64,000 nucleotides of DNA from an uncultured Thiotrichales bacterium. Lineage in GTDB: Bacteria; Pseudomonadota; Gammaproteobacteria; CAZUMV01. Below the pieces are notes generated by a model. That model made no database searches, was not told the DNA's origin, and saw only the letters and a list, made by a program, of their open reading frames with translations. The position numbers and the translations under genes were made by a program. The stretch covers positions 6-64,005 of the forward strand of contig CALIRD010000099.1 in NCBI GenBank assembly GCA_938042355.1, given 5' to 3'. How positions within the stretch are numbered: the stretch's first letter is position 1; each line of letters starts with the position of its first letter. Positions 26,641 through 59,446 of the stretch are shown here, piece by piece.

Positions 26641-26943
26641 TCAGGATGACAGGTCATGCAAGATGCGCTGCACCAGTTGTTCACGGCGTGCGGATTGCAG
26701 CGCTTGTAGAGTTTCATCGGCTTCGAAGTTTTCTATTTTGTCGCTACCGCCGAACCCGTGTTGTTCCGAGAGTTTTTCGTAAATATCCATTCGGTCTCTT
26801 AGTACTGAAATTTCCATCGCAAGACGAAGCACAACATCGACCACCTGATCCATGTTGGAAGTTGCAATGAACGTTGGTTTGGTGCGTTTGCTGTCGAGCA
26901 TCAAGTCAGCAACACTGTTGCTCGGGCTCTTATCATTACTCAT
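26641..26943 (-). CDS. Small protein 'A' (100 aa), member of a 4-copy paralogous family in this window; function unknown
   Basis: Its ATG overlaps the stop of the methyltransferase at 26940 (ATGA). Shares the core VVDVVLRLAMEISVLRDRMDIYEKLSEQHG...IENFEADE with the ORFs at 36354, 41947 and 60535. Confidence 0.6.
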   Translation of the reverse strand: MSNDKSPSNSVADLMLDSKRTKPTFIATSNMDQVVDVVLRLAMEISVLRDRMDIYEKLSEQHGFGGSDKIENFEADETLQALQSARREQLVQRILHDLSS

Positions 26944-28067
26944 GAGTTTACTTGCGCGCCAAACAGAAAATAACTGTTGTTACCGCCAGCAGCTTGATAG
27001 TCAGTGAAGCGTTCTTGCTCATCAAAACCGGCTGTCGCCAAAGCAGCATCGATATCGGTATCGACAAAGCCAGTCCAGAACGGTTCGCCATTATTAACCA
27101 CTTGCCAGTCATTAGTTACCTGAGAAGGTATGTCTATTCGGTTCGGTTGGTAGGGAACATCTATATTGAAAAAGACACCACCAGGTGCGATCAAGCGTTT
27201 TACCTCTTGCATAATCTCCAACAGCTTTTCATCCCATGTTTCATGGAAGAGAATTTGACTGACAATGAGATCAAAGGAATTGTCTTCAAAGCCGGTGTCA
27301 GCCGCATCCAGTTGATGAAAATGCAGGCTGAGCTGACTATCCTCGGCCATCGCATGTGCGCAGCGCATAAAGGGGCCGGATAGATCAAGTCCGTGGACTT
27401 CAGCCTCAGGCCAGTACTCTTTAAGGCCGCGTGTCAGTGCGCCGATACCACAGCCTAAATCAAGAATTCGTGTGGGTTGGGTGTCAGGGAATCTCTGGGT
27501 GATCAGCTGAGCCATGGCGTGTCCGCCAAATGTATCCTTGGTTTTTCCAGAACTGAAGCCTTTGGCAGCCGTGTAGAGTTGAATGGTCCCATAATAAAGC
27601 AGGGGGGCGGTCAGTCCATTTTTCTCTGAATCAAAAAAGTAGCCACCCGGTTGACGATGTATTTCTGTGCTGCCGATCGGTTCGGGCAAAACAAGATCGG
27701 GATTCAGGGTCAAACTTCCCAGTTTTTTATCGTTGTTATCAATTGCTTTCGCTTTTTCTTCGGCATGCTCGAGAATTCTGTCTACAGTATCTCCAACCGT
27801 CTCCCATAGCAGGTCCTGTGAGGTATAAACGGCAGAACCCCAAAGCTGATAGAGATGTTCTTTTTCAAACAGACTTTTGGCTTCGTCTCGGGATGCAGGT
27901 GGTTTACCGTGTTGTTCGAGGTATTTCGGTAGTAATTTATCCTCATACAAGGCATGAATTTGTTGCTCCAGTTTGCCATTAACATATTTCTTCAAGCTGC
28001 CGACAAAGGCTTGTCTGGATGCTTCATCTTTATTCGGTTTGTATGTCTTTGTAAACGCTGTAGTCAT
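26940..28067 (-). CDS. Class-I SAM-dependent methyltransferase with long N-terminal extension (paralog MT1)
   Basis: Motif I RILDLGCGIGALT. Acidic loop HGLDLS. Post-II region HFHQLDAADTGFEDNSFDLIVSQILFHE. Motif RLIAPGG. C-terminal NGEPFW. N-terminal QPGGYF element. Confidence 0.8.
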   Translation of the reverse strand: MTTAFTKTYKPNKDEASRQAFVGSLKKYVNGKLEQQIHALYEDKLLPKYLEQHGKPPASRDEAKSLFEKEHLYQLWGSAVYTSQDLLWETVGDTVDRILEHAEEKAKAIDNNDKKLGSLTLNPDLVLPEPIGSTEIHRQPGGYFFDSEKNGLTAPLLYYGTIQLYTAAKGFSSGKTKDTFGGHAMAQLITQRFPDTQPTRILDLGCGIGALTRGLKEYWPEAEVHGLDLSGPFMRCAHAMAEDSQLSLHFHQLDAADTGFEDNSFDLIVSQILFHETWDEKLLEIMQEVKRLIAPGGVFFNIDVPYQPNRIDIPSQVTNDWQVVNNGEPFWTGFVDTDIDAALATAGFDEQERFTDYQAAGGNNSYFLFGAQVNS

Positions 28068-28072
28068 ATTGT

Positions 28073-29611
28073 TTAACTCATGCCCAGTTTAGGAATGAAA
28101 AGCGACTGTGTCGGTAACATAGTGGTTTTTTCCTCCGTAAATAATTCAATTGAGGCGTGTAAACCATCGCGACCCACGCCGGATTGTTTATAGCCACCAA
28201 ATGGCGCTCGCAGGTCCCTGGTCAGCGGTGTATTGACCCAGACGGTGCCGGCTTTGATCTCACGGCTGCATTTCATCACAGTAGGCAAGTCATTCGACCA
28301 GACATAGCTTACCAGTCCAAAGTCTGAATCGTTCGCGATAGTGATAGCTTCTTCGAGATCGCTGTACCTTTGCAGTGCTACAAATGGGCCAAATATTTCT
28401 TCCTGACAAACTCGTGAGCTATTGTCGGCCAGCACGGCAGTGGGTTCAAAATAGTAGCCGGATGAAAATCCATCAGCGGCTTTGCCGCCCACTAATATTT
28501 CTGCGCCTTCTGATTTTGCTATGTCAACATACGACAACACTTTTTCATAATGCGAGGCGAACGCGAGTGGTCCGACTTCTACATCGCTATCAAAAGGATT
28601 GCCGACTTTTACATTTGCCATACGCTGTGTAAATTTATCGATAAACTCATCGGCGATAGAGTCTTGCAGCAAGATTCTTGAGCCAGCGAGACATTGCTCG
28701 CCATTACCAGCAAGGATCGCTATCAGTGAGCCGTCAATAGCGTCATCGAGATTAGCATCTGCGGTAACAATATTGGCGGATTTTCCACCAAGCTCCATGC
28801 CCACTTTTTTCAGGGTTTTGGAGGCAGATGACATAATGGTTTTACCGGTACCGGTGCCGCCAACAAATCCAATCACGTCGACGTCAGGGTGTTCTACCAA
28901 CGATTGTCCGGTGATGTGGCCACGACCATTGACGAGGTTTACCACGCCCGGTGGAATGCCCGCATCATTAATTATCTCTACAAATCTTTGCAGGGTATAT
29001 GGCGAGTATTCAGAGGCTTTGATTACAACCGTGTTACCGGTAGCCAACGCCGCAGCCAGTTTCATTGATACCAGCACAGTTGGAGCATTCCACGGGGTTA
29101 GCAGGGCACATACGCCTACCGGTTCATGCGTCACAATGGAAAGATAATTTCTGGTTTGTGTATAGGCTTCGCCTCCCAGGGTGCCAGCAACTTCAATAAA
29201 AAATTCAAAATTCTCTACCGTTCTTGGCATGTGCATGGCTTGTAAGCCAGCGACTGGAATACCGACCTCGAATGCCTGTATGGTCGCTAATTCCTGAGCA
29301 TGCTCGCGTATGGCGTCACGGGCTTTATAAAGTATGGCTTTCCTGTCGGTGTGGGACAGATATTGCCAGTCGGTGTGATCAAATGCATGTCGTGCAGCAG
29401 CAACTGCCGCATTGACCTCGCTTTCATCACTTTCTTGAACGGTATAGGTTTCTTCTGCGTTGATTGGACAGACTGACTGAAGTTTAAATGCTGTCGTGTC
29501 ATGTCCCTGCAAACTTCCGTCGATTATTGCCGTGACGGTGTCGGGTAATTGAATCTGGTGTTGGTCGGTGAGATCTTTGACATTGGGTATCTCAAACTGA
29601 TTGTCGGTCAT
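28073..29611 (-). CDS. Aldehyde dehydrogenase (NAD(P)+)
   Basis: ELGGKSANIV and GEQCLAGSRILL catalytic motifs in a 512-aa product. Confidence 0.9.
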   Translation of the reverse strand: MTDNQFEIPNVKDLTDQHQIQLPDTVTAIIDGSLQGHDTTAFKLQSVCPINAEETYTVQESDESEVNAAVAAARHAFDHTDWQYLSHTDRKAILYKARDAIREHAQELATIQAFEVGIPVAGLQAMHMPRTVENFEFFIEVAGTLGGEAYTQTRNYLSIVTHEPVGVCALLTPWNAPTVLVSMKLAAALATGNTVVIKASEYSPYTLQRFVEIINDAGIPPGVVNLVNGRGHITGQSLVEHPDVDVIGFVGGTGTGKTIMSSASKTLKKVGMELGGKSANIVTADANLDDAIDGSLIAILAGNGEQCLAGSRILLQDSIADEFIDKFTQRMANVKVGNPFDSDVEVGPLAFASHYEKVLSYVDIAKSEGAEILVGGKAADGFSSGYYFEPTAVLADNSSRVCQEEIFGPFVALQRYSDLEEAITIANDSDFGLVSYVWSNDLPTVMKCSREIKAGTVWVNTPLTRDLRAPFGGYKQSGVGRDGLHASIELFTEEKTTMLPTQSLFIPKLGMS

Positions 29612-29622
29612 GCCGGTATCCG

Positions 29623-30816
29623 TTATACGATTGCTGTAGCATCCGCCAGACTACTGTGCATTGACTGTTGTAGCAAATACTCTCTGCGTTTATCGGCGTT
29701 CTCATGCATCTCGCGCATCATGGCTAAGCGCATTTTTTGGCCTTGTTCTTCACCATGCTCTAGTATGGCTTTGTTCTGTTTGGTCTGTGCTTGGATGAAA
29801 TTATGGGTAATAGTTCGACGCTGTCGATCGTATAATTCAAATAACGCATCATCATGGCCATCTGTCAAGCAGGTGAGTATCTTGTCAGTCAGGTTCCAGG
29901 CATCATGAATGCCGCTGTTCATACCAAATCCACCCAGCGGGTTATTCAAGTGTGCTGCATCTCCCACCAAAAACACACGGCCGTGACTGAAGTTTTTAGC
30001 AACTCTTTGATGTACGCGGTAAATGGTTCGGTGTTCAGTTTCAACTGAGCTGTCATTAATCAAGCGATCAAATACACCTTCCTTATACGTGTCTGACAAC
30101 AAATGTTCATCATTATCAGACTCTTTTGCTGGCACCAGGATGCGCCAAACGCTGGGTACCCGAAGCAACACCATCCATTCGCTGGGATCAGATACATAAT
30201 TTACGTAAGCAATGTCGGGTATAAAATCCGCTAATTCCTTTTTGGTGGACAGACATAGGAATTTCTCAGGATAGGTGAAGCCTTCGAACTCAACTCCAAG
30301 CCACTTGCGCACAGTTGAGCTGCCGCCATCCGCAGCGATCAAATAATCCGCTTTAAGTGTGGTGATATCGATGCCCGTTTCAAATGAAGCGGTCACACCA
30401 TTTTCTTGTTGTTCAAAATGAACCAGTCGATGATCGAACAATACTTCAGCATTTTCATGTGCATCCAGTTTTCCGGCTACCAGTGATGCCATAACATGCT
30501 GTTCACATTGAACGCGGTAAGGAAATTCGGTGACGTCATCAATTTCAGCCAGGTCAAATTCCAGTATTTCACCAGTACTGCGTTCACGAAAATGATACAG
30601 AGGTGCAACCAGTCCTCTCTCTATGATCTCTTCCACCAAGCCGACTTCATGCAGCATTTCTAAAGTAGGGGAATGAAAGGTAGAGGCGCGAAGATCTTGG
30701 GCACAATTCATCCCCGCTTCACAAAGAGTCACTTTAACGCCGGCAAGCGCCAGACGATAGGCAGCAAGGGTTCCAACAGGACCTCCTCCGACAACAATGA
30801 CGTGCTTGTTCTTCAA
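29623..30816 (-). CDS. FAD-dependent aromatic-ring monooxygenase (UbiH/salicylate-hydroxylase family)
   Basis: N-terminal VIVVGGGPVGTLAAYRLALAG (GxGxxG) and LVGDAAHLNNPLGGFGMNSGIHDAWNL (DG/GD motifs). TTG start. Confidence 0.85.
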   Translation of the reverse strand: MKNKHVIVVGGGPVGTLAAYRLALAGVKVTLCEAGMNCAQDLRASTFHSPTLEMLHEVGLVEEIIERGLVAPLYHFRERSTGEILEFDLAEIDDVTEFPYRVQCEQHVMASLVAGKLDAHENAEVLFDHRLVHFEQQENGVTASFETGIDITTLKADYLIAADGGSSTVRKWLGVEFEGFTYPEKFLCLSTKKELADFIPDIAYVNYVSDPSEWMVLLRVPSVWRILVPAKESDNDEHLLSDTYKEGVFDRLINDSSVETEHRTIYRVHQRVAKNFSHGRVFLVGDAAHLNNPLGGFGMNSGIHDAWNLTDKILTCLTDGHDDALFELYDRQRRTITHNFIQAQTKQNKAILEHGEEQGQKMRLAMMREMHENADKRREYLLQQSMHSSLADATAIV

Positions 30817-30989: not shown

Positions 30990-31658
30990 ATGATGACGAA
31001 AGAAAAATTAACCGTGCGAATACATGAGCTACTGGCGGGTCATGATTTTACAACGGTGCTGCCAGAAGCTAAAAGTACTGAGTTGAAAAAGACTCTGGAT
31101 GAGCTAATTCCATTCTCGCCTGTACCTGACCCAATGGACAACCAGCATGCAGCAGAGGGTGTATGGGAGTGTAATTACGCCAACTTCGGGGTTAAGCATG
31201 CTGCTGAGCAACCGATGTTACACAGGTCAAGTCTGGCTAAACAAAGCTGGAATAATTTACCCAATATTCCGGCTGATATGATTGATATCCGGCAGGAAAT
31301 CCTCGTTAGTACCAAGGCCTACAACAATGTCGTAAAGTTACGTAGTACAACGTCTGATTGTGAAGCTGTGGTAGTGCTCTACGGGACTTATTCGGGTGAT
31401 GATGACAATCGTACTCGATACTCGGTTGCATTCTCGGAGGTTTCACTGGAGCCCATGAACGGTGACAGTGAGGCTGAGCTCCGTAGCGGCTTCGGTATTG
31501 ATGACGATGTGCCACTTCGTACCACGTTTAACCCGCCAAAACTTCATTCAGATATTGTTTATGTAGATGACAGGCTAAGAATCAACTATGGCAGTCTTGG
31601 CGGGTATTATGTCAATACCAAAATTGATGAAGCTGGATATTCGATAGACTACCAATGA
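30990..31658 (+). CDS. Hypothetical protein (222 aa)
   Basis: Clean ORF immediately upstream of the IclR gene. No recognisable motif. Confidence 0.45.
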   Translation: MMTKEKLTVRIHELLAGHDFTTVLPEAKSTELKKTLDELIPFSPVPDPMDNQHAAEGVWECNYANFGVKHAAEQPMLHRSSLAKQSWNNLPNIPADMIDIRQEILVSTKAYNNVVKLRSTTSDCEAVVVLYGTYSGDDDNRTRYSVAFSEVSLEPMNGDSEAELRSGFGIDDDVPLRTTFNPPKLHSDIVYVDDRLRINYGSLGGYYVNTKIDEAGYSIDYQ

Positions 31659-31667: not shown

Positions 31668-32489
31668 GTGCCAACTGATCCGGAAGCTCGCTCGGAGTTA
31701 ACCATACGAGCATTAAGCAGAGGCTTGCGATTGCTTTCTGTATTGAATTCTCGAGGTGAAGCCAGTCTGGCTGACCTTGCTAAAGAAACAGGTTTGCCCA
31801 GACCCACAGCTTATCGTTTGCTGCAGAGTTTACTAGCAGAAAATTACATAACCAAAGATGAGGCGTTAAGTACCTACCATCCTGCACCGCGCTGCTGTTC
31901 ATTGAGTAGCGGTTTCATGGAAGATGCCTGGTTACTGGAGCACACACAAGAAGATTTAAACAAGCTGGGTGATGAGTTGATCTGGCCAATTTCTATAGCG
32001 ACTAATGCAGGCACACGCATGATCGTTCGCAAAAACACAGATATTGAAAGCCCTCTGGCAGTACGTAAATTTATGCCTGGTACCTCTCTGGCTTTGCTTG
32101 AAAGTGCTTCCGGAAAACTTTTTCTGGCCAAATGCACTGCTGCCCGCAGAGCAAAATTGCTGAATATTATTTCGGCATCTTCCGATCCGATGCTCAAGAC
32201 GGAAAGCGATCGCGCCAGACTTGAGAAGCTGCTTGATAAAATTCGGTTAGATGGTTATGCCACCCATACGAAACCTGGTAAATACAGTGAAGCACGAGCG
32301 ATTGCTGTGCCAATTAAAGTAGAAAAAAAAGTAATCGCCACGTTAACCATTAGATATGCCAAAACTGCAGTCAGCAACAAGCGCGCTGAAAAAGAATTTT
32401 TACCTTTGATGTTTGAAACAGCGCGCAAGATTGGCGTAAAAATTAGTGCTGACCAGCGGGCGCTGCCTGCGTTTGGATTGGGTGAGTGA
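31668..32489 (+). CDS. IclR-family transcriptional regulator
   Basis: HTH ASLADLAKETGLPRPTAYRLLQSL followed by an IclR effector domain. GTG start. Confidence 0.8.
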   Translation: MPTDPEARSELTIRALSRGLRLLSVLNSRGEASLADLAKETGLPRPTAYRLLQSLLAENYITKDEALSTYHPAPRCCSLSSGFMEDAWLLEHTQEDLNKLGDELIWPISIATNAGTRMIVRKNTDIESPLAVRKFMPGTSLALLESASGKLFLAKCTAARRAKLLNIISASSDPMLKTESDRARLEKLLDKIRLDGYATHTKPGKYSEARAIAVPIKVEKKVIATLTIRYAKTAVSNKRAEKEFLPLMFETARKIGVKISADQRALPAFGLGE

Positions 32490-33681: not shown

Positions 33682-33694
33682 AGTTGAATGGTTT

Positions 33695-36329: not shown

Positions 36330-36353
36330 AAGCAGCGCAACTAGAGAATTAAT

Positions 36354-36695: not shown

Positions 36696-36729
36696 ATCCG
36701 GTGTCGTAACTGATATTGGGATTGACTGA

Positions 36730-42225: not shown

Positions 42226-42229
42226 AGCG

Positions 42230-50248: not shown

Positions 50249-50260
50249 TCTGATTACAGA

Positions 50261-51253: not shown

Positions 51254-52134
51254 GTAACGTCGCTTATGGCAATACCGAACAATGGGTGTTGCAACTGGTG
51301 CTGGCAGTTATTGTACTGGGAATAGCGCTCGATATTTCTCCATCAGATTTTCGAAAGGTAATTAAATCTCCACGAGCACCACTCTGTGGTTTAACTGCGC
51401 AGTTTTTTTTATTGCCAATGTTGACCCTGATATTGACATTGATGTTGGAGCTGCCAGCAGGAATTGAGTTAGGTATGTTACTGGTTGCCGCTTGTCCAGG
51501 TGGTGCTATTTCGAATTTCATTACTTATTTATCTGGCGGTAATACAGCCCTCTCAATCACTATGACTGCTGCTGCAAGTACTCTGGCAATTGTCTTGATG
51601 CCATTTAACTTTGTCTTCTGGAGTCAGTTAAATCCTGAGGCCGTCGCATTAATGCAGCAAATTGAAGTCAGCAGTCGCGATTTAGTGACCACGGTAATTC
51701 TGGTATTGGCAATTCCACTCTCACTGGGTTTTACCATCAAGCATTACTTGCCTGTTCTGGCTGGGCGATTGCACCTGCTCTTGAAATATTCTTCTATTCT
51801 GGCTTTGTTCGCCTTTATTGCATTTGCGGTCATACAAAACCTGGAAGCTTTTCAGAAATATTTCAGTTTATTAATTGTGGTGGTGTTGATACATAACAGT
51901 CTGGCGTACGCTATAGGATATTTCACGGCTTACCTAAACGGGGTTGAGCTGGCTGATCGAAAAGCTATAACCATTGAGGTTGGCATGCAAAATTCTACGC
52001 TGGCAATCGCGATTGTGTTCACTCAGTTTGACGGTGAAGCTGGTATGGCGCTGATCAGCGCTTTCTGGGGTACCTGGCATCTTGTATCGGGATTATTGAT
52101 AGCGATTGTTTTCAGGAAATGCCTTCCCTCTTGA
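51217..52134 (+). CDS. Bile acid:sodium symporter (BASS) family transporter
   Basis: LLVAACPGGAISNFITYLSGGNTALS signature. Start uncertain: TTG at 51217 overlaps the previous gene, and an in-frame GTG at ~51290 is an alternative. Confidence 0.7.
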   Translation: MVLSAVDQLVELSNVAYGNTEQWVLQLVLAVIVLGIALDISPSDFRKVIKSPRAPLCGLTAQFFLLPMLTLILTLMLELPAGIELGMLLVAACPGGAISNFITYLSGGNTALSITMTAAASTLAIVLMPFNFVFWSQLNPEAVALMQQIEVSSRDLVTTVILVLAIPLSLGFTIKHYLPVLAGRLHLLLKYSSILALFAFIAFAVIQNLEAFQKYFSLLIVVVLIHNSLAYAIGYFTAYLNGVELADRKAITIEVGMQNSTLAIAIVFTQFDGEAGMALISAFWGTWHLVSGLLIAIVFRKCLPS

Positions 52135-52147: not shown

Positions 52148-54091
52148 TCAAGGTCTTACAATTTCAAACCAGAAATCAAAGTCATCCAATAACCCAAAAA
52201 ATGATTGTAATGCATTAACATTACCACTCACATCCAGTAAGTTTTCTTGAGCCAGCTGGGCAATTGTTTTACTCCCAAGGTTTAATTGATCCAGTGCAGT
52301 ACGTGACATACTCAAGCTGGCAGTTGGGTTGTTATCTTGAGTATTGAGTCTGTGGTGTAGAGTGCCATTGCTAACAATCAATAGCGCAGTTTCGCCGGTG
52401 TCGGTTAGTTTGAAGTTAAAACGCCAGTCATTAGTGGCAGCTTTTGGACCGTTTAGACGAACGGCCAGTGTATCGAAGTATAAGTCGAGTGGGATGGCTC
52501 TAACCATATCAGCGCTTGATGTTCTCGGAGTCGGTAGATCGAGTACACCTCTGCGTAGTTCGGCAGCCCCACTCAAATAGAAGTTTCTCCATGATCCCGA
52601 TTCGGCTCTGAAGCCTAATTGCTCATAGGTATCTGCGAGTAAATTACTGGCGGCTGAATTTTCAGGTTGGGCAAACACTAAATGATTAAGCGCTGTCGCT
52701 ACAAACCGGTATTCGCCATTAACATAATCCTGCCTGGCTTTTTTCAGGATTGCTGCGCTGCCACCCATATAATCTACGTATTTTCGTGCTGCTGCCACAG
52801 GCTCCAATGGATCAAGGTTGGCTGGGTTGCCATCAAAATAACCGTAGTAAAGTTGGTATTGTGCTTTAGAGTTGTGACTGACAGTGCCGTAGTAATCGCG
52901 GTTGGCAAATGATCCAGCTATGGCATCCGGTAATTCAAGTCTTTCCGGGATTTCATGCATAGTATAACCATGGTTCGATAATCGCAGCGTTTGATCATGA
53001 ATGTAACGATATAAATCACGCTGACCTGTCCAGAACGATATGATTTTATCGTTGCCCCATGTAGGCCAGTGATGTGAACCAAAAGACACTTCTGTTCGTG
53101 ACCCAAAGCGGGTAATTACTTGATCAATATATTGACTCCAACGTCGACCATCACGAACTTTGGCGCCCCGCGGGGTATACATGTTATGCAGAGTGCGATT
53201 GATAATTTCTGCCTGGCAAAATGCCTTGAATTCGGGCAAAAAGAACATGAATTCAGTCGGCGCCTCTGCGCCCAAAGCCAACAAAAATTCGAAAGTGATA
53301 CCATCGATAATCATCGAGGTTGTGCTCTCTGTAATTTCTCTGGTTGGCCGTATCAGACCGGGTGTGCCACTGGAAATAGCCTGGCCCAATCCGACACCTA
53401 CTTGTCCTTGTGGGGATTTGGGTAATAACGAACCAAACATATAACTCGCGCGCCGCCCCATTTGATTGCCAGCGAGTATGTTTTCGCTAATGGTTTCACG
53501 AGTAAAACCGACAGGAGCAATCACTTCAGTTCCTGATGACAGGTCTTGCTCTGAAATTATTCCACGAACACCACCGTAGTGATCCAGATGCGAGTGTGTA
53601 AATAATACTGCGCTGATTTTACGCTTACCTAGTTCTTGCTCAACCAGACTCAGTGCAGTCGCGGCAGTTTCTTTAGTGATTAACGGGTCTATAACTATCC
53701 AGCCAGTATTGCCTTCAATAAAAGTGATGTTGGAAAGATCAAAACCCCGCACCTGATAAATTCCATCCATGACTTTATACAGACCATGTTTGGCGGCGAG
53801 TTGACTTTGTCGCCACAAACTTGGGTTTACTGATGCAGGTCGCTCGCCTTGCAGAAAGTCATAAGCACCAAAATCGTAAACAACCTGACCATTGTCACTG
53901 GTGACCGTGGTGTTTTCCAGGGTGGCGATAAAGCCACGCTCCGCCTGTTCATAATCATCACGATTACTGAAATCCAGTGTCTGTGAAATGTAGGAGGATT
54001 TTTCCGGGGCAAGTAGAGATCTTTCAATACTATTTGAAGCACACGCGCTCAATGACAACACGCACACACCTATGACAAGCAAATTCTTCAT
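52148..54091 (-). CDS. MBL-fold alkyl/aryl-sulfatase (SdsA1-type) lipoprotein with C-terminal SCP2-like domain
   Basis: THSHLDHYGG metal motif. Start set at the internal ATG giving MKNLLVIGVCVLSLSACASNS (lipobox). The track's upstream extension to 54244 is rejected. Confidence 0.85.
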   Translation of the reverse strand: MKNLLVIGVCVLSLSACASNSIERSLLAPEKSSYISQTLDFSNRDDYEQAERGFIATLENTTVTSDNGQVVYDFGAYDFLQGERPASVNPSLWRQSQLAAKHGLYKVMDGIYQVRGFDLSNITFIEGNTGWIVIDPLITKETAATALSLVEQELGKRKISAVLFTHSHLDHYGGVRGIISEQDLSSGTEVIAPVGFTRETISENILAGNQMGRRASYMFGSLLPKSPQGQVGVGLGQAISSGTPGLIRPTREITESTTSMIIDGITFEFLLALGAEAPTEFMFFLPEFKAFCQAEIINRTLHNMYTPRGAKVRDGRRWSQYIDQVITRFGSRTEVSFGSHHWPTWGNDKIISFWTGQRDLYRYIHDQTLRLSNHGYTMHEIPERLELPDAIAGSFANRDYYGTVSHNSKAQYQLYYGYFDGNPANLDPLEPVAAARKYVDYMGGSAAILKKARQDYVNGEYRFVATALNHLVFAQPENSAASNLLADTYEQLGFRAESGSWRNFYLSGAAELRRGVLDLPTPRTSSADMVRAIPLDLYFDTLAVRLNGPKAATNDWRFNFKLTDTGETALLIVSNGTLHHRLNTQDNNPTASLSMSRTALDQLNLGSKTIAQLAQENLLDVSGNVNALQSFFGLLDDFDFWFEIVRP

Positions 54092-54185
54092 TTTACATAC
54101 TCGATGTTCGTTGATTATAGTGAAACGATACAGGATGGCTCCGACAAGATCGAGAATCCTGATGACGAAATCCAGCAATGAATAT

Positions 54186-55616
54186 TTAGCGCAACAACAG
54201 AATAACTGCAGCCAGAAGTAGCAGTGGTAGCCATACAAAGACACGATCAGTGTTTGTTTTTTGTCTCAAAATACGAGAATAGGCAAGCTGGTGGTTTTGT
54301 ACCAGCAAGAATGCAGGTTTGTTGATAAACCAGGGTAAAAGTTTATGTAAAGTATGCTGCAACAAGAAGCGTATCACCCACATTTTCATGCGCCAAGGTG
54401 ACTGATTATACTGATAGGGAAACACTGTCTGCACCAGTTTTACGAGTGCTTCGGATTCGACGAGACGGTGCTGTTCATACCGTTTAAAGTCATCGGAAAT
54501 GTCAGCTTGATCTGTCATATAGGTTTCCAGTTCGTATAAATCTTCCAATGCTGAATTCACACCCAGGCCAAGATCAGGAGGAAAGGCATGAGCTGCATCT
54601 CCAATCAACAGACAATGGGTAGGAGTTTCTTCTCTGCCTACACGTGCGTATAAAGATAGAGCATGTTGTGGTGATGGAAACTTACCGGCGGTCAAACTGA
54701 CAAAATCAGACGCTTCTTCTTTTGATATCAGATTCGGTATATCCAGTTGCGGAAAAGCCTCTGTGAGATAGGTAATTAAATCGTCTGCTTCTTTGAGTGT
54801 CCACAAATGGTGATCCGCTTCCCGGATTATGTTGACGCTTCTGGGATGCTCTGCATTTGCAACGGGAAAGCCAAACAATGCCATTGCTTTGGTTCTGTCT
54901 TTATGAATTGAGGGAAATACATAAGCCATGCGATGGTCATTCACCTCTGACTGCTGTCCTTTGATAGAAAAATTCGGGGGCAGATTCAATACCTTGTAAA
55001 AAAGCTTGGCACTCGGTGATTCATACTTCTTCATCTCAAAATGACTGTCAGGCATTGCTGGCCAATCAGAAAGTAATTTTCGTGTAGTGGAGGTTAATCC
55101 ATCGCAGGCCAGCAATATATCCGGTGAGAATTGAAGTTCTGTGTCTTGAGAGTCAGTAATGGTTACGAGTGCTTTTCCATTTTCTGCTTCTGTAATGCTG
55201 GAGAGGGAATGGTCATAGAGCAGCTTGATGCTGTCATCAGTTCGTCTCTGCACCGCCTGATACAACATGGTTTGTAAATTTCGTCGTGTTGTCCAGTAAC
55301 AGGTGACTCTGTCTTTGTCGATAATCGGTGAATCAATAGTTTTGCTGCTTCCATCGGGGAGTATGGTGGTAGCGTGAAATGATTTGTTGGCAACGCCGAA
55401 TGATTCAAGGTCTTTCATCAGACCCAGTCGCTTCAGCAGCTTTTGACCGCGTCCATCGATCTGATAGGTAAATGCTTTGTTTTTTTCAAAATCTTTTGCT
55501 GAACTTCTGCGCTCGACTACCGTGATATTCTGGTAACCAAGGTCAGCAAAAAGTAAGGCAGCGGCAAGCCCGCTTGGACCGGCCCCAATGATTAATACTT
55601 TGTCGGCAATATTCAT
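54186..55616 (-). CDS. FAD-dependent monooxygenase, kynurenine-3-monooxygenase-like, with C-terminal membrane anchor
   Basis: VLIIGAGPSGLAAALLFADLG and LIGDAAHAFPPDLGLGVNSALEDL. Hydrophobic C-terminus LPLLLLAAVILLL. Confidence 0.8.
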   Translation of the reverse strand: MNIADKVLIIGAGPSGLAAALLFADLGYQNITVVERRSSAKDFEKNKAFTYQIDGRGQKLLKRLGLMKDLESFGVANKSFHATTILPDGSSKTIDSPIIDKDRVTCYWTTRRNLQTMLYQAVQRRTDDSIKLLYDHSLSSITEAENGKALVTITDSQDTELQFSPDILLACDGLTSTTRKLLSDWPAMPDSHFEMKKYESPSAKLFYKVLNLPPNFSIKGQQSEVNDHRMAYVFPSIHKDRTKAMALFGFPVANAEHPRSVNIIREADHHLWTLKEADDLITYLTEAFPQLDIPNLISKEEASDFVSLTAGKFPSPQHALSLYARVGREETPTHCLLIGDAAHAFPPDLGLGVNSALEDLYELETYMTDQADISDDFKRYEQHRLVESEALVKLVQTVFPYQYNQSPWRMKMWVIRFLLQHTLHKLLPWFINKPAFLLVQNHQLAYSRILRQKTNTDRVFVWLPLLLLAAVILLLR

Positions 55617-55625
55617 TGACTGTGT

Positions 55626-56795
55626 TTATAAAGCCACTGTGGCAGGGTCATACATGGTTAAGCCCAAAGTGTCTTCCGTGCGTAAGGGGTTTTTTGCCAG
55701 TGCGTAAGGATCCTGTCCCATTAGTGTGTCTCCACCACGATGTGATTCGAGATGCACTTTAGTGACCCGTTCAAGACGTCCGTCTTGATAGTGTTCTAAT
55801 GCTGCTTGTGTGTCTTCAAATTCAATCAGACAGCGTGACATGATGATGGCATCTTCCAATGCGGTGGCTGCGCCTTGTCCAAACCATGGCAACATCGGGT
55901 GGGCGGCATCACCCAGCACTGCTGCATTGGTTTTGATCCACTGTTGCAAAGGCTGTCGCGCAAACAAACCCCATTTATGAATGTCGGTTCCTTTGAATGC
56001 GCCGAGGACGGTATTCACCTCAGGATGAAAATCTGAAAACAGAGTTTGCAAGGTAGAAAGTTTGCCGGTCTGTGACCATCCTTCGGCAGCCCAGTCGTCT
56101 GCTTTTGAAAAAGCGACCACATTTTGTATCGCGCCTTGACGCACCGGATAACGCACACAAATACGTCCGGGAGAAATAAACACGGATGATCCAGCCTGAA
56201 GATCCAGTTCTGCTACATCAGCGGTTGGAATAAGTCCTCGCCAGGCAACATAGCCGGTAAATTCAGCATCATCTTCAGTAAAAACCATTCTTCTCACAGT
56301 AGACTTGAGTCCGTCAGCGCCAATCAATAAATCTGTGCTGCATTGATCGCCATTACTGAAGTCGAGATGGTAGGTATCATCTTCCTCAGTAATGTTGGTC
56401 AATTCTGCGGCAAGTGTTATGCCCTCAGGTTTGAGTTCCAAATACGCATCGGTCAGTAGTTGATGCAGGTCGGCGCGATGCATTTGTAAATAAGGTGCAC
56501 CCAATTTTTCTTCGGTATGTTTTCGATCAATAAGTACAAGCACTTCACCGGTTTCAAAATGCCGGGTGATTTGGATCGGAGGCTCATCGGCCTGAGCTCT
56601 GATTGCGTCACCCAGACCAAGATAGCGTAGTGCTTTTACTGCATTAGGTGAAAGTGAAATACCAGCACCGACTTCACCCAGTTCTCTAGCTTGTTCATAA
56701 ACATGTACCTCGCGTCCTGCTCTGGCAAGACCAAGGGCGAGCGCAAGACCGCCTAGTCCTGCGCCTATAATTACTGTGGGATGATGGTGTGACAT
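55626..56795 (-). CDS. FAD-dependent monooxygenase (salicylate-hydroxylase-like)
   Basis: VIIGAGLGGLALALGLARAG and VLGDAAHPMLPWFGQGAATALEDA. Confidence 0.85.
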   Translation of the reverse strand: MSHHHPTVIIGAGLGGLALALGLARAGREVHVYEQARELGEVGAGISLSPNAVKALRYLGLGDAIRAQADEPPIQITRHFETGEVLVLIDRKHTEEKLGAPYLQMHRADLHQLLTDAYLELKPEGITLAAELTNITEEDDTYHLDFSNGDQCSTDLLIGADGLKSTVRRMVFTEDDAEFTGYVAWRGLIPTADVAELDLQAGSSVFISPGRICVRYPVRQGAIQNVVAFSKADDWAAEGWSQTGKLSTLQTLFSDFHPEVNTVLGAFKGTDIHKWGLFARQPLQQWIKTNAAVLGDAAHPMLPWFGQGAATALEDAIIMSRCLIEFEDTQAALEHYQDGRLERVTKVHLESHRGGDTLMGQDPYALAKNPLRTEDTLGLTMYDPATVAL

Positions 56796-56797
56796 AT

Positions 56798-58393
56798 TTA
56801 AAGACCCAATACACCCGGGTTCATGAGGTTGTCCGGGTCAAGTCTGGATTTGATACTTTTGAGTAGAGATAGGGAGGCTTCGTTTCGTTCACGCGTATAG
56901 GGATAAGTGCGGCCAATTTGATAATGTGTGCCTCCATGTTGATACATCAGATCAATAATTGATTCTTTAATTTGATCGACTACCTGCTGTGCTTCAGGAT
57001 TCGCATCAGCCTCATTCATTAGATTCAGTATTTCTGCAGACATGGTTTTTTTATGAAGTTCAGGCCATTCATCCGGCCAGTAAATGACGCATTCCCATAG
57101 AAACCCGGCTGTTCCGCAGGTGGCGTATACCACGCAAATATCAATATCATGTTGTTTGCATAGTTCATCATGTTCGGCGAGCAATGCATCAAAACCTTGT
57201 TGTAGCTGGTTGGCTTGCGAGTAGGGAACAATGGTATGCAATGGCAATAGACGTTTTCCCGCTGGTCCCAAAACCATAGGGTCAGGAAATGGGGTTTCCT
57301 GAGTCATGACTGCCACGGTGTTGGCAGTCTCGACACCTTTATTTCCAGCGAACTCTCTAATTCTGGCGACATTGGCGTTCAGTTCTCTTTTGCTAGCTCC
57401 TTCGGTGAGAAAATTAATCAGATATTTAGAATTATCTAGAAAGCTGCGACCATTTTTAGCAATGTTGAGAACTTTGCCCAGCGTGGCTAATGGTTTATCG
57501 GAGTGTTTAATCATTTGCAGCATTTGACGGGCATCGTTCATCAGGTCCGGTGTGCCAGCGACCATTTTCACCAACCTGGTTTCAGCACCAAAAATTTCAG
57601 TAGAAACTTTATGTCTTGATATAAGACGGACAGCCTCCAACAATGACGGAAAGTCATCAAAGGAATAAGAAAGGCCAGTAGATTTAACCGGTAGAGGTTC
57701 CAGTCTGAGCGTGATCGCTGTTTTTATACCCAGCGCACCAGAGTCACCGCAGAAGACGCCGGTTAAATCAGGACCGTACTCCCGGTAAAAGGCACTGTGT
57801 TCTGGTTGGCCAGCGGAACCAGTGACCATAACACTGCCATCGGCGAGTACAACTTCAAGGCCAATAGTGGCGCTGATTGATGAACCATTACGTGATGATC
57901 CCAAAGTCACTGCACCTTGAGAGACCGCACCGCCCACGCTGGATACCTTGCCGGACATCGGCCCCCAAAAAATACTTCTCACGGAATGCTTGCGCAGTTC
58001 TTGTTCCAGTTGTAGCCAGGTACATCCCGCTTCGACAGTCACATACAAATCATGGGCATTGATTTTACGTATGCGGTTCAGTCTTGAAGTATCAAGAATA
58101 ATTGCATGGCTTTGCGTGGGCAGGTGTGCATCGGTATAGGACATGCCGCCACCGCGCGTGAAAATTGCGGTTTTGGTGCGGCTGGCTGCACTAACAATTG
58201 CGCTGGTCTCTTTAGTGTTTGAAGGTGAGACGAGCGCCAGTGGTGTGTGACCAGAACGATAAACATCCTGTGCCGCGAGTGTTAAGGAGGCTTCATCGGT
58301 GACAACATGTTCGTCACCGATAAGATCTTTCATATCCTGAAGTAACGCAGTTACTTCAGATTCTGTAGCCTGTGCGACTGGTTGTGATGACAT
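56798..58393 (-). CDS. FAD-linked oxidase (FAD_binding_4 / vanillyl-alcohol-oxidase-like)
   Basis: The N-terminal PCMH-type FAD-binding domain is recognised here mainly by overall layout and contains ...FTRGGGMSYTDAHLP. 531 aa. Its stop is 2 nt from the next ATG. Confidence 0.75.
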   Translation of the reverse strand: MSSQPVAQATESEVTALLQDMKDLIGDEHVVTDEASLTLAAQDVYRSGHTPLALVSPSNTKETSAIVSAASRTKTAIFTRGGGMSYTDAHLPTQSHAIILDTSRLNRIRKINAHDLYVTVEAGCTWLQLEQELRKHSVRSIFWGPMSGKVSSVGGAVSQGAVTLGSSRNGSSISATIGLEVVLADGSVMVTGSAGQPEHSAFYREYGPDLTGVFCGDSGALGIKTAITLRLEPLPVKSTGLSYSFDDFPSLLEAVRLISRHKVSTEIFGAETRLVKMVAGTPDLMNDARQMLQMIKHSDKPLATLGKVLNIAKNGRSFLDNSKYLINFLTEGASKRELNANVARIREFAGNKGVETANTVAVMTQETPFPDPMVLGPAGKRLLPLHTIVPYSQANQLQQGFDALLAEHDELCKQHDIDICVVYATCGTAGFLWECVIYWPDEWPELHKKTMSAEILNLMNEADANPEAQQVVDQIKESIIDLMYQHGGTHYQIGRTYPYTRERNEASLSLLKSIKSRLDPDNLMNPGVLGL

Positions 58394-58396
58394 CGA

Positions 58397-59446
58397 TCAG
58401 GCAGGTTTTACAGCGGTGGTCAGTGACAGGAATGTCGGTGTCGGTGCCTGTTCAATCTCGTCAAAGCCTGCTGCTTTTATCAGTCCGGGAAAATCTGATT
58501 CTACAAAAGCTGGAGCATAAGGTTCGCAGTTGTATTGAGCGTCAAATTTTTGCCACATGCGATTGGCGGCTGGCAAGCTCGTACCCAGTGGAGCATCAAC
58601 GATGGTCAAGGTGCCGCCGGGGCGCAATACTCGCATCGCTTCTTCGAGAATGGGTGCGAAGGTATGCTCCGGTGTTTCGTGAAACAGTATGTAGGCGAAG
58701 ACGGCGTCGAAACTGCTGTCTTCTTGCGGCAGGTTCTCAGCCAGTGCCTGTTGAAAATGCACTTCTGACTGTTGTTCATTGGCGCGATAGTTTGCATAAC
58801 GTAACAAGGGAAGAGCTACATCAACACCCCAGATGTCAGCCTCTGGATAGGCGTCTTTGAACGCCGTGGTGCACTGTCCAATCGAGCAACCTAGATCGAG
58901 TATGCGCGTTACTTTGCCGTCAGCAGGTTGCCTGAGCATATCTACATAAAGCTTGTGTAGCTCATCGTTATCGTTCATGCCCTGATAAAAGACGCGGGTA
59001 CCGTGCTCAAATATGAAACCTGCCAGGTCATCTTTACAATAGCCACCCGGTTGCAAGTGTATGTCATAACAGGCGGAATCAGGAACATGAAAATCTTTAT
59101 CGTAATGCAGTCGTCCGGTCGCGGCTTCTGCCTGGTCGAGCATAGCTAGATGCTTTTCCTGATCGGCATGATAGCTGTCTCGCAGCTTGTTCCAGGTGAG
59201 CGCTTGTTGTGAACGCATCATTCTTTTCCATGAGCCGATGCGTGGTATGTCATCAACCATGTCGCTTATTTCCAGGTAATCTGAATCAGCCTTTCCTGAA
59301 GCTTCGACGGTGGTGTTGATTTTTTCTGCCAGTTCAGGAAACCAGTCTACAATGACAAAATTTCGCACCGACATCAGGTAGTCAAGGTAACTTTGATCTT
59401 CCGTTGTTGCTGGCTTGGTGACGCTTTCAAGACCATTTGCTGACAT
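58397..59446 (-). CDS. Class-I SAM-dependent methyltransferase with N-terminal extension (paralog MT4)
   Basis: RILDLGCSIGQCT. WGVDVA. QEDSSFDAVFAYILFHE. RVLRPGG. CEPY. N-terminal QPGGYC. Its stop is 3 nt from the oxidase ATG. Confidence 0.8.
   Translation of the reverse strand: MSANGLESVTKPATTEDQSYLDYLMSVRNFVIVDWFPELAEKINTTVEASGKADSDYLEISDMVDDIPRIGSWKRMMRSQQALTWNKLRDSYHADQEKHLAMLDQAEAATGRLHYDKDFHVPDSACYDIHLQPGGYCKDDLAGFIFEHGTRVFYQGMNDNDELHKLYVDMLRQPADGKVTRILDLGCSIGQCTTAFKDAYPEADIWGVDVALPLLRYANYRANEQQSEVHFQQALAENLPQEDSSFDAVFAYILFHETPEHTFAPILEEAMRVLRPGGTLTIVDAPLGTSLPAANRMWQKFDAQYNCEPYAPAFVESDFPGLIKAAGFDEIEQAPTPTFLSLTTAVKPA

Follow-up and report, generated by a model that had tools for sequence, protein, structure and literature searches.

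On a marine gammaproteobacterial contig, a stretch of about 37 kb holds four copies of a two-gene unit, composed of a SAM methyltransferase (MT) and a helical partner of about 100 residues, interspersed with oxidase, hydrolase and transporter genes. We read this cassette as a putative small-molecule methyltransferase of two subunits, acting on O or N and inserted into variable operons for the processing of imported compounds, and give this reading a probability of roughly 0.4. The whole stretch of DNA analyzed, 64 kb long, is called the window hereafter. The members of the four units are:

26940-28067, minus strand: MT1, class-I SAM methyltransferase with an N-terminal extension of about 180 aa (Pfam Methyltransf_25, E = 6.7e-22, residues 201-297 only)
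26641-26943, minus strand: partner 1, helical, 100 aa, homologous to the other partners, start overlapping the MT1 stop by 4 nt
35127-36329, plus strand: MT2, class-I SAM methyltransferase (Pfam Methyltransf_25/11)
36354-36695, plus strand: partner 2, helical hairpin, 113 aa, homologous to the other partners
40892-41950, plus strand: MT3, class-I SAM methyltransferase (Pfam and paralog alignment)
41947-42225, plus strand: partner 3, 92 aa, homologous to the other partners, start overlapping the MT3 stop by 4 nt
58397-59446, minus strand: MT4, class-I SAM methyltransferase opening run D (Pfam and paralog alignment)
60538-60873, minus strand: partner 4, 111 aa (hmmsearch with a partner profile, E = 1.2e-23)

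The four MTs announced in the preliminary description were indeed class-I SAM-MTs by Pfam (Methyltransf_25/11, E from 1e-18 to 1e-22) and true paralogs, which align over their full length with 23-33% identity. They belong to no known equivalog family. MT2 is the most conserved paralog (56-71% identity to homologues of Caulobacter, Novosphingobium, Sphingorhabdus, Alteromonas and Paraglaciecola), and MT1 shares 87% identity with a homologue from a Thiotrichales MAG (L002). Each MT carries a helical N-terminal extension of about 180 residues, for which Pfam, PDB sequence and PDB fold searches gave no match; this family-specific module is a long helical hairpin with a cap bearing an invariant histidine. 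H139, G207, D264, H273, E274 and R289 (MT2 numbering) are invariant in 110 of 110 members, and D/E201, G203, D226, E286, D/E301 and E325 are kept in at least 107. The SAM motifs are intact, and the unchanging pair H273-E274 aligns with the HH of the LHHMPD motif of RebM.

The nearest relatives and the best structural neighbours of the MTs are overwhelmingly small-molecule MTs. RebM, MitM, LahSB, TleD and TmtA, natural-product MTs of the Methyltransf_11/25 type, share 14-25% identity with the window MTs over a core of about 190-217 residues only; they have neither the N-terminal hairpin module nor a dedicated partner, and RebM-type MTs sit in biosynthetic clusters, which are absent from the window. 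Modification of rRNA, tRNA or bulk protein, with a merely fortuitous location among catabolic genes, is extremely improbable. RlmA (1P91) does appear among the PDB sequence matches (42-44 bits), but the MTs have no RNA-binding domain, four paralogs share one stretch and a single MAG has up to 12, the structural neighbours point to small molecules, and linkage to catabolic and transport genes is found in many phyla. We also hold it very doubtful that the MT fold serves something other than methylation, either a SAM-dependent reaction as in RdmB, SpnF, CmoA or RquA, or the sensing of SAM or another ligand together with the partner. Five invariant His or acidic residues beyond the SAM motifs and the cost of SAM in catabolism favour such a role; however, conservation is complete both in the SAM-binding motifs and at the position where active O/N-MTs typically have their base, and features specific to those atypical enzymes were not found. 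The same five His/Glu/Asp residues could mark a metal site and other chemistry, for example C-methylation of enolisable acids.

MTs and partners are present in a 1:1 ratio in the window. Three partners are placed 3′ of their own MT, two of them with a stop/start overlap, and partner 4 lies 18 nt downstream of a PhyH gene and 1.1 kb from MT4, beyond the end of the range reported previously (59446). The preliminary description had overlooked the partner ORF of each MT, the fourth of which was outside its range. Partners measure 92-113 aa in the window and typically about 90-135 aa. The AF2 model of partner 2 shows two helices (18-50 and 66-112; pLDDT 79). No Pfam family, PDB sequence or PDB fold matched the partner. 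Trm112, a zinc-knuckle/beta protein, serves RNA and protein MTs, whereas the window partner is a hairpin made of helices only, in which no similarity to such activators was detected.

The cassette is widespread in bacteria. Of 109 MT homologues, at least 66 have a same-strand partner next to them, in Proteobacteria, Actinobacteria and Chloroflexi, and no adjacent partner was detected for about 40% of the homologues, including tandem MT triplets in two loci (L029, L033). When the search started from the partner, the MT was next door or one gene off in five of six metagenome loci, in two of these as a contig-edge fragment only. Also, the distance matrices of MT and partner co-vary (Mantel r = 0.74, matched in 0 of 2000 permutations). 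Such co-divergence is also expected from plain co-inheritance of neighbouring genes.

The window also contains four FAD_binding_3 flavin monooxygenases, at the positions where the preliminary description had placed flavin hydroxylases:

29623-30816, minus strand: group-A flavin monooxygenase, PnpA/HspB-like, opening run A (FAD_binding_3, E = 2e-58)
36730-37923, plus strand: group-A flavin monooxygenase, NicC/3HB6H-like (closest solved relatives)
55626-56795 and 54186-55616, minus strand: two group-A monooxygenases of run D (Pfam)

Their assignment to the UbiH/Coq6 family held at the superfamily level only, as they score 60-116 bits on TIGR01988 (cutoff 224.65). The closest solved relatives of the 29623 hydroxylase (116 bits on TIGR01988, cutoff 225) are PnpA (171 bits) and HspB (152 bits). 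The 36730 hydroxylase (251 bits on NF006021, cutoff 459) is related to 6-hydroxynicotinate 3-monooxygenase (NicC, 185 bits), tropone 2-monooxygenase (179 bits), decarboxylative vanillate 1-hydroxylase (158 bits) and PhzS (106 bits). The substrates of PnpA, HspB, NicC and vanillate 1-hydroxylase are para-substituted phenols and hydroxypyridines, and a (hetero)aromatic substrate is therefore plausible.

Three of the four MTs had been described as adjacent to hydroxylases. They do share a close-packed same-strand run with one, but a single gene separates each pair, namely an ALDH (MT1), the small partner ORF (MT2) or a VAO-type flavoprotein (MT4); MT3 has no hydroxylase. It is conceivable, although rather unlikely, that hydroxylase and MT form a coupled pair which hydroxylates and O-methylates, in either order, an imported phenolic or N-heteroaromatic ring, in the manner of UbiH/UbiG or, closer, of PhzM/PhzS. 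Besides the shared runs, the resemblance of the hydroxylases to ipso- or decarboxylative para-hydroxylases (PnpA, HspB, NicC, vanillate 1-hydroxylase and, at 106 bits, PhzS) agrees with this, as do the thinning out of hydroxylases with distance when other loci are binned by 2.5 kb from the MT (6, 1, 2 and 1 per bin) and the MT-MT-MT-hydroxylase arrangement of L033. Also in agreement, 29623-type orthologues (51-64% identity) were found close to MT2-type cassettes of Caulobacter (L083), of Novosphingobium pSA1 (L087) and of a metagenome contig (L092), those of L083 and L092 (58-64%) adjoining the cassette. Nevertheless, only 6 of 82 other loci have a FAD_binding_3 homologue no farther than 2.5 kb from the MT, and this family accounts for 3 of 136 flanking ORFs, which fall into 112 Pfam families. 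Moreover, the invariant catalytic residues are common to MT copies with and without hydroxylase neighbours. The small helical protein is the sole consistent neighbour of the MT over the homologous loci. Thus, the conserved unit is MT plus small partner and not MT plus hydroxylase, contrary to what had been proposed.

The analogy with ubiquinone tailoring did not stand either. Like this pathway (UbiG/UbiE = Coq3/Coq5; UbiH/UbiF/UbiI = Coq6), the window combines class-I SAM MTs with group-A flavin hydroxylases, and the small helical partner is formally reminiscent of UbiK among the accessory factors UbiJ/UbiK. However, the partner gave no match to the UbiK family, no window protein reached the UbiE, UbiG, UbiH or Ubi-OHase cutoffs, UbiA prenyltransferase, UbiD/UbiX and UbiC are absent from the window, UbiG and UbiE do not have the 180-aa N-terminal module, and the window genes are located among importers and hydrolases. 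The pyocyanin pair PhzM-PhzS, an N-methyltransferase with a decarboxylative flavin hydroxylase, resembles the window in associating an MT with a small group-A hydroxylase of the NicC/salicylate-hydroxylase type. PhzM requires PhzS for activity, which also speaks for a coupled pair; it belongs to the O-MT family (Methyltransf_2) and has a dimerisation domain. Unlike the cassette, the pyocyanin pair has no small partner protein; the window has no phenazine genes, and the hydroxylase link concerns only a minority of cassette loci.

The other genes around the four copies, assigned by Pfam unless stated otherwise, are:

28073-29611, minus strand: aldehyde dehydrogenase between hydroxylase and MT1 (Aldedh, E = 4e-155; best NCBIfam match HpaE-like, 496 bits, cutoff 638)
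25664-26623, minus strand: alpha/beta hydrolase, distal in run A
24882-25652, minus strand: Amdase/maleate-isomerase-superfamily protein, distal in run A
31668-32489, plus strand: IclR regulator
32497-33681 and 33695-34948, minus strand: two tandem beta-lactamase-fold hydrolases, divergent from MT2
37910-39325, minus strand: sodium:solute symporter (SSF)
39556-40902, plus strand: GPH/MFS_2 symporter opening run C (MFS_2)
42230-43051, plus strand: alpha/beta hydrolase closing run C (Abhydrolase_1)
43071-43940, minus strand: PEP-mutase/isocitrate-lyase-family protein (Pfam and NCBIfam, below equivalog cutoffs)
43944-45344, minus strand: FAD_binding_2 flavoprotein (same basis)
45406-47034, plus strand: ALDH (same basis)
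56798-58393, minus strand: VAO/PCMH-type flavoprotein, run D, downstream of MT4
52148-54244, minus strand: alkyl sulfatase, run D
59627-60538, plus strand: LysR regulator flanking partner 4
60892-61809, minus strand: PhyH-family dioxygenase flanking partner 4

The Pfam scan, which covered all ORFs of at least 150 aa in the 64 kb except five overlapping longer annotated genes, detected transporters, esterase-type hydrolases, one alkyl sulfatase and three ALDHs and no PKS, NRPS, prenyltransferase or chorismate-pathway gene. Both results agree with the preliminary description and support the view that the region does not encode a biosynthetic cluster of the scaffold-building kind. Its operons appear to import small organic molecules and to process them oxidatively or hydrolytically, an unusual setting for SAM-dependent MTs, as had been pointed out. 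None of the neighbouring importers, oxidoreductases and hydrolases reached an NCBIfam equivalog cutoff. The proposed remodelling or catabolism of imported aromatics is in line with such operons, but complete aromatic catabolism is not supported because no ring-cleavage dioxygenase was recognisable in the window. Overall, the earlier observations were partly confirmed and their interpretation partly supported.

As for the neighbours in other loci, 6 of 82 have an MFS_2 homologue at most 2.5 kb from the MT. Of the 13 MT2-type loci, 5 contain PEP-mutase homologues and 6 a VAO-type gene, the latter being present in 2 of 75 other loci. MT2-type cassettes are also repeatedly accompanied by families related to the 2,5-dihydroxypyridine/maleamate pathway (NicC or HspB, NicD, NicF, NicE), namely NicC/HspB-like hydroxylases, alpha/beta hydrolase, isochorismatase-type amidase and maleate-isomerase/Amdase-superfamily protein. 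This similarity is at the family level only, the nearest solved relative of the Amdase-like protein (24882-25652) being, weakly, maleate cis-trans isomerase (33.6 bits); NicX-/Hpo-type ring-cleavage dioxygenase and NicAB were not found, and the known pathway has no methyltransferase.

The hydrolases raise an alternative which we consider improbable, namely that the MT, like BioC with BioH or like Tam, methylates a single carboxylate group on a di- or tricarboxylic acid that has been imported, to make downstream steps regiospecific, before an adjacent alpha/beta or beta-lactamase-fold esterase demethylates it. MT1 and MT3 each have an alpha/beta hydrolase after their partner, two esterase-type hydrolases lie divergently to MT2, and no other neighbour family is as frequent as the alpha/beta hydrolases (8 of 82 loci have one within 2.5 kb). 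Organic-acid enzymes abound in other loci (PEP mutase/ICL family, large and small aconitase subunits, PrpD, CoA-transferase III, HMG-lyase-like), and BioC is the top NCBIfam match of MT1. Yet this match is far below cutoff (66 bits versus 185; Tam, 44 versus 320), carboxylate methylation needs no invariant His-Glu base, ACP or fatty-acid-synthesis context is absent, alpha/beta hydrolases are common everywhere, and MT4 has no esterase.

Equally improbable is a CheR/MCP-like reversible switch, in which the partner would be the methyl acceptor regulating adjacent catabolic and transport genes and esterase-type hydrolases could act as demethylases. The 1:1 ratio and co-divergence would suit it, as would a near-invariant Glu (175 of 176) with small residues on either side in a conserved helix motif of the partner, the IclR and LysR regulators and hydrolases nearby, and the helical N-terminal domain of the MT, as in CheR; enzymatic neighbours that vary this much point to a generic function other than catalysis. 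On the other hand, the closest MT relatives act on small molecules, Pfam and NCBIfam show no similarity to CheR or protein carboxyl MTs, a CheB-type esterase is absent, and partnerless MT copies occur. The extreme variability of the neighbours suits regulation no less than catalysis.

In the two-subunit methyltransferase reading that we prefer, MT and partner would form a heteromer, the partner hairpin packing on the N-terminal hairpin of the MT to complete or gate the pocket. The intact Rossmann motifs would bind SAM, and His273-Glu274 would deprotonate an OH or NH of the substrate. Each cassette is part of a different run, with its importers (GPH/MFS_2, SSF), hydrolases and oxidases (PnpA/HspB-like and NicC-like hydroxylases, VAO-type flavoprotein, PhyH, ALDHs), and would most likely cap or tag a hydroxylated or N-heterocyclic intermediate of the imported compounds, possibly before or after the hydroxylase step. 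Methylation would then be a low-flux tailoring or detoxifying step, and neither bulk catabolism nor ubiquinone-like ring building. SAM is a costly catabolic reagent, a counterpoint to this reading. At times a partner adjoins another enzyme (an OYE-type flavoprotein, PrpD or a hydantoinase; in this window, PhyH), and the partner may therefore not be specific to MTs.

Pfam scans of the window ORFs of at least 150 aa, minus five that overlap longer annotated genes, bore out the gene list of the preliminary description, namely methyltransferases (MTs), hydroxylases, ALDHs, hydrolases, a sulfatase and transporters. The four MTs and the four hydroxylases, called by Pfam, and the gene runs that contain them are as follows:

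26940-28067, minus strand: MT1, class-I SAM methyltransferase
35127-36329, plus strand: MT2, class-I SAM methyltransferase
40892-41950, plus strand: MT3, class-I SAM methyltransferase
58397-59446, minus strand: MT4, class-I SAM methyltransferase
29623-30816, minus strand: FAD_binding_3 monooxygenase
36730-37923, plus strand: FAD_binding_3 monooxygenase
54186-55616, minus strand: FAD_binding_3 monooxygenase, 476 aa
55626-56795, minus strand: FAD_binding_3 monooxygenase
30816 down to 24882, minus strand: run A, hydroxylase, ALDH, MT1, small ORF, alpha/beta hydrolase, Amdase-like gene (gaps of at most 17 nt, or overlaps)
35127-37923, plus strand: run B, MT2, small ORF, hydroxylase, with two esterase-type genes divergent
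39556-43051, plus strand: run C, MFS_2, MT3, small ORF, alpha/beta hydrolase (overlaps or 4-nt gaps)
59446 down to 52148, minus strand: run D, MT4, VAO-type flavoprotein, hydroxylase, hydroxylase, alkyl sulfatase

Pfam also identified three ALDHs, alpha/beta and beta-lactamase-fold hydrolases, one alkyl sulfatase, SSF, MFS_2 and SBF transporters, and IclR and LysR regulators. As had been claimed, scaffold-building genes are lacking: the scanned ORFs include no PKS, NRPS, prenyltransferase or chorismate-pathway gene, and no recognisable ring-cleavage dioxygenase was found among them. None of the remaining island proteins reached an NCBIfam equivalog cutoff, and assignment of the island to a known pathway was rejected on this ground. 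The GC content is about 46% with no compositional break, and the 64-kb window contains no tRNA, riboswitch or other RNA and no Rfam match; thus nothing marks a mobile island. Another uncultured Thiotrichales MAG (CALISW010000200.1, locus L002) is syntenic with the window at 26.6-37.9 kb, in reverse orientation, with an MT1 87% identical.

Several details of these genes were recorded. The alkyl-sulfatase ORF (52148-54244, minus strand) is listed with a GTG start that gives a 59-nt overlap with the monooxygenase gene before it, and its actual start is therefore probably further downstream. That monooxygenase (54186-55616) is itself atypical, as FAD_binding_3 matches in two separate stretches, which suggests an insertion. 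Besides the MTs, tandem duplications were seen for two beta-lactamase-fold hydrolases (32497-34948, minus strand) and two group-A monooxygenases (54186-56795, minus strand). At 49427-52134 (plus strand), a PPIase (Rotamase_2), a HupE/UreJ_2 protein (Ni/Co-type transporter family) and the SBF transporter interrupt the catabolic-type genes. Identification of the VAO-type protein as a 4-phenol oxidase was ambiguous, PCMH and D-lactate dehydrogenase scoring equally, and the similarity of the Amdase-like protein to maleate isomerase was weak (33.6 bits).

The four MTs form one paralogous family with 23-33% identity over their full length. All match Methyltransf_25/11 above the gathering score, with an intact motif I (D/E-x-G-x-G/x-x-G) and an acidic residue after beta-2, and their core is an ordinary class-I fold. 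In each of them the Pfam domain begins only at about residue 180-200, and the N-terminal module that precedes it had no meaningful match among PDB sequences. An MT search gave 2824 proteins at E <= 1e-10. MT2 is 56-71% identical to homologues from Caulobacter, Sphingorhabdus, Novosphingobium, Alteromonas and Paraglaciecola, whose annotations are all generic or 'UbiE'; the closest solved proteins by sequence are plant phosphoethanolamine N-MT, RebM, 3MGG, LahSB and MitM. Among 110 family members, H139, G207, D264, H273, E274 and R289 (MT2 numbering) are invariant, and D/E201, G203, D226, E286, D/E301 and E325 are kept in at least 107. To judge from these alignments SAM binding is evidently retained, and we consider it very improbable that the family consists of SAM-fold enzymes or sensors that do not methylate. 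H273-E274 aligns with the HH of the RebM motif LHHMPD, which we take to be the catalytic His140-His141. The extra invariant His and the carboxylates may belong to an acid/base network or to a metal site; the His-Asp...His iron site of the C-methyltransferase MppJ is presumably similar in topology, and serves as a lead only.

Directly 3' of MT1, MT2 and MT3 are small ORFs of 100, 113 and 92 aa that are mutually homologous, and two of the three junctions are ATGA stop/start overlaps. A fourth member of this family was recovered by a profile search of the six-frame translation (E 1e-23):

60538-60873, minus strand: partner 4

A PhyH-family dioxygenase gene lies 18 nt upstream of it and a LysR gene is convergent with it; MT4 is 1.1 kb away, and this copy falls beyond the range previously reported. 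MTs and partners thus both number four in the window, and since partner 4 is separate from MT4, partners need not adjoin their MT. The partner belongs to no Pfam family, nor has it any in the precomputed annotation of a newer Pfam release. An exhaustive profile search gave at least 1380 clusters (50% identity) at E <= 1e-3 and 424 at E <= 1e-10. Almost all are standalone proteins of about 90-135 aa. The few listed at 140-240 aa contain a single match of about 100 residues, usually C-terminal, and look like start-site calls, not fusions. No fusion to an MT or other domain was found in the best 150 of the 1380 clusters, and an apparent 461-aa fusion in one locus (L052) was an ORF-calling artefact. 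An AF2 model predicts a helical hairpin (helices 18-50 and 66-112, pLDDT 79, pTM 0.47), which matched no PDB fold; homology of the partner to the N-terminal hairpin of the MT was also rejected, profile-profile comparison showing none.

The partner motif reads A-K-G-x-R-P-x-F-F-x-D-P-x-x-D...L..E-L-S-V-x-R-D-R-L-D-T-L-E-R-L-L...G...I-E-x-Y-x-P-D...R...R, and its Glu is present in 175 of 176 sequences. Such a residue could be the target of a regulatory switch, in which the MT would not be a metabolic enzyme and would reversibly methylate its own partner, for example at this nearly invariant Glu33. The methylation state would then set the activity of the host catabolic or transport operon, in a CheR/MCP-like manner outside chemotaxis, with neighbouring esterase-type hydrolases as possible erasers. 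We hold this explanation to be quite improbable.

The association of MT and partner extends far beyond the window. With the MT alignment as query, GTDB species genomes yielded 80 loci, spread over Alpha- and Gammaproteobacteria, Acidimicrobiales, Arthrobacter, Solirubrobacteraceae, Anaerolineaceae, Marinimicrobia and Burkholderia. For at least 66 of 109 MT homologues with more than 150 bits, a same-strand partner ORF lies no more than 250 bp away. By a stricter count the partner is found in 50 of 80, 37 downstream and 13 upstream of the MT; other pairs are divergent (L088, L089) or lost at contig ends. Conversely, a metagenome scan seeded with the partner gave six loci, five of which have an MT adjoining or one gene away (two of these five MTs are only contig-edge fragments, and the sixth locus is too short for a verdict). 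The distance matrices of MT and partner are correlated (r = 0.74, 67 adjacent pairs), and none of 2000 Mantel permutations was as high. By these sequence comparisons, the cassette of MT and partner duplicates and diverges as a unit.

We define here a family, absent from databases, in which an MT with an N-terminal hairpin module of about 180 aa is accompanied by an adjacent, co-diverging partner of about 90-135 aa. The MT signature consists of an invariant H-x-x-P-G-G/x-Y, an invariant H-E after beta-4, and E-P-F/Y-W; that of the partner is G-x-R-P...D...L..E-L-S-V-x-R-D-R-L-D-T-L-E. All four MTs and all four partners of the window fit this definition.

Local amplification of the MT reaches 4 copies in the window, 5 in locus L033 and 12 in one MAG. 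This Rhodospirillaceae MAG, cluster2_bin.43, distributes its 12 homologues over four loci (L029, L033, L043, L076), with two tandem MT triplets that are without partner ORFs. L033 has the order isochorismatase, MT, MT, MT, hydroxylase, glyoxalase, MT, partner, partner, PrpD, MT, partner, that is, 5 MTs and 3 partners in 11 kb (7556-18155). The arrays hint at sequential multi-methylation or hetero-oligomers. Partners also occur beside OYE-type flavoprotein, PrpD or hydantoinase genes.

The preliminary description had instead made the pairing of hydroxylase and MT the central feature. In 82 loci, the ORFs that immediately flank the cassette on the same strand number 136 and match 112 Pfam families, none of which occurs in more than four ORFs (FAD_binding_3 in three). 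Within 2.5 kb of the MT, homologues of the alpha/beta hydrolase occur in 8/82 loci, of the hydroxylase, ALDH and MFS_2 in 6/82 each, of the TonB-dependent receptor in 5/82 and of the VAO-type flavoprotein in 4/82. Hydroxylase matches per 2.5-kb bin away from the MT number 6, 1, 2 and 1. Because their density drops with distance, the pairing is real but a minor theme, at six loci of 82. What is conserved as a functional unit is the MT with its partner, rather than with a hydroxylase. Direct coupling of MT and hydroxylase, for which PhzM/PhzS is the closest precedent, is accordingly rated as rather unlikely. The alpha/beta hydrolases would suit another scheme, in which methyl esters are formed and removed by neighbouring esterases as a protect/deprotect logic, and to which we give a slim chance. 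Methylation of a macromolecule seems extremely improbable.

Loci with an MT2-type MT share more of their neighbours (MT2-type loci versus other loci):

VAO-type flavoprotein: 6/13 versus 2/75
DUF1838: 5/13 versus 0/75
Polysaccharide-deacetylase-like: 6/13 versus 6/75
PEP-mutase/ICL family: 5/13 versus 7/75
Isochorismatase: 4/13 versus 10/75

The VAO-type gene directly follows the partner in two Caulobacter loci (L083, L088), and DUF1838 is found in L001 (11827-12864), L084 (6789-7817), L036, L040 and L059; in Sphingorhabdus the cassette and DUF1838 stand alone amid housekeeping genes. Orthologues of the 29623 hydroxylase (51-64% identical) and of the Amdase-like protein (42-68%) each occur in 3/13 MT2-type loci. 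Organisms that can be cultured and have an MT2-type cassette are Caulobacter vibrioides (LNIY01000139), Alteromonas sp. M12 (CP144164, 132-153 kb), Sphingorhabdus sp. SMR4y, Paraglaciecola and Novosphingobium resinovorum (pSA1). On an unrelated metagenomic contig, L092 (Ga0079224_100000028, 1-10000), a single gene run contains deacetylase, isochorismatase, transporter, hydroxylase (64%), Amdase (68%), PEP-mutase (50%), partner, alpha/beta hydrolase, MT2-type and VAO-type genes. As this run unites orthologues of genes dispersed over runs A-D, it suggests that they belong to one pathway. The Sphingomonas plasmid pJE1 has an MT, a 119-aa hypothetical protein and an FAD oxidoreductase whose stops and starts overlap; after these come a VAO-type gene, a Zn-ADH and hydantoinase A/B, and HapK and an SDR are divergent from the set.

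The four hydroxylases scored 199, 86, 80 and 90 bits against FAD_binding_3 (PF01494, gathering score 22 bits) and are by this match group-A flavoprotein monooxygenases. Their earlier placement in the UbiH/Coq6 family does not stand, as TIGR01988 gave 116, 60, 67 and 77 bits against a cutoff of 224.65. The MTs likewise fell short of UbiE/MenG (TIGR01934, 40-53 bits, cutoff 158.35), UbiG (TIGR01983, 32-41 bits, cutoff 102.95) and the BioC malonyl-ACP O-methyltransferase (TIGR02072, 36-66 bits, cutoff 184.95), and their Pfam Ubie_methyltran matches (28-43 bits) overlap the generic MT domain at weaker scores. No UbiA, UbiD/UbiX or other scaffold gene was found among the scanned ORFs. The analogy with ubiquinone-type tailoring is thus withdrawn, and with it the tempting 'UbiE' mis-annotation that some source annotations (JGI/IMG) carry; ubiquinone, BioC, Tam, ArsM, RquA and CpaM identities were all rejected on NCBIfam scores far below cutoff.

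The closest solved relatives of the 29623 hydroxylase are PnpA (p-nitrophenol 4-monooxygenase, 171 bits) and then HspB (6-hydroxy-3-succinoylpyridine 3-monooxygenase, 152 bits). For 36730 the closest is the 6-hydroxynicotinate 3-monooxygenase NicC (185 bits), with tropone 2-monooxygenase, decarboxylative vanillate 1-hydroxylase and 3HB6H as other relatives and PhzS more distant. In PnpA, HspB, NicC and vanillate 1-hydroxylase, the new OH is placed para to one already present and a substituent is expelled, giving hydroquinone- or 2,5-dihydroxypyridine-type products. By their scores against NF006021 (3-hydroxybenzoate 6-monooxygenase/6-hydroxynicotinate 3-monooxygenase), 36730 (251 bits) and 55626 (247 bits) are related to that family but not assignable to it (cutoff 459). 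Given these hydroxylase types, the substrates handled in the window are probably phenolic or N-heteroaromatic.

Known systems offered partial likenesses. The 2,5-dihydroxypyridine/maleamate route (NicC or HspB, NicD, NicF, NicE) has several families in common with the MT2-type neighbours, at family level only, and a NicX-type dioxygenase was not seen. The thiol S-methyltransferase MddH is described as a compact UbiE-family protein with no extended N-terminal helical region (PMC11445057), unlike the window MTs with their ~180 extra N-terminal residues; on this architecture an MddH-type assignment, for which more than 45% identity to MddH was also the criterion, appears unlikely. The homarine hom operon, which has no MT and uses different enzymes (Nat Microbiol 2026), was not a match for the island either. 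A literature search on DUF1838, on pJE1 and on MT/esterase or MT/DOM themes yielded nothing relevant. Neither the N-terminal module and its co-diverging helical partner nor the promiscuous insertion into catabolic-type operons with local amplification is described in Pfam, NCBIfam, PDB or searchable papers.

Our preferred reading, to which we assign a probability of about 0.4, is that the cassette, set within variable import and oxidative/hydrolytic operons, encodes a small-molecule O- or N-methyltransferase of two subunits that works with SAM and a His-Glu base. The cost of SAM would make a role at low flux, in capping, detoxification or signalling, more likely than a bulk catabolic step, and the target might be auto-oxidisable hydroquinone or dihydroxypyridine products. 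To our knowledge, SAM-dependent methylation is rare in bacterial substrate-processing operons, and here about 37 kb hold four copies of one MT-plus-partner unit, with up to 12 in a single Rhodospirillaceae MAG. Abundant heterotrophs of sea and soil are among its carriers (Halieaceae, Alteromonas, Sphingomonadales, Caulobacter, Steroidobacteraceae, Acidimicrobiales). The cassette is a widespread, mis-annotated gene pair with testable chemistry; its substrate, once found, would supply an annotation for thousands of pairs now listed as 'class I SAM-dependent methyltransferase / hypothetical protein', and could expose a methylation step or methylation-based control in bacterial handling of phenolic and N-heterocyclic compounds and DOM.

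Three window proteins of 291, 336 and 222 aa (2955-3830, 23867-24877 and 30990-31658, all plus strand) had no significant Pfam and no PDB sequence match, and were not retained as the ring-cleavage enzyme that was looked for. The 291-aa protein has homologues at 6 other MT loci; its glyoxalase/VOC similarity is very weak (E 0.019), and it could be an unrecognised dioxygenase. Also, the window contains a complete RND efflux operon (11835-17850, minus strand) with outer-membrane factor, periplasmic adaptor and AcrB-type pump, and the Sphingorhabdus cassette (L084) is likewise flanked by an RND operon.
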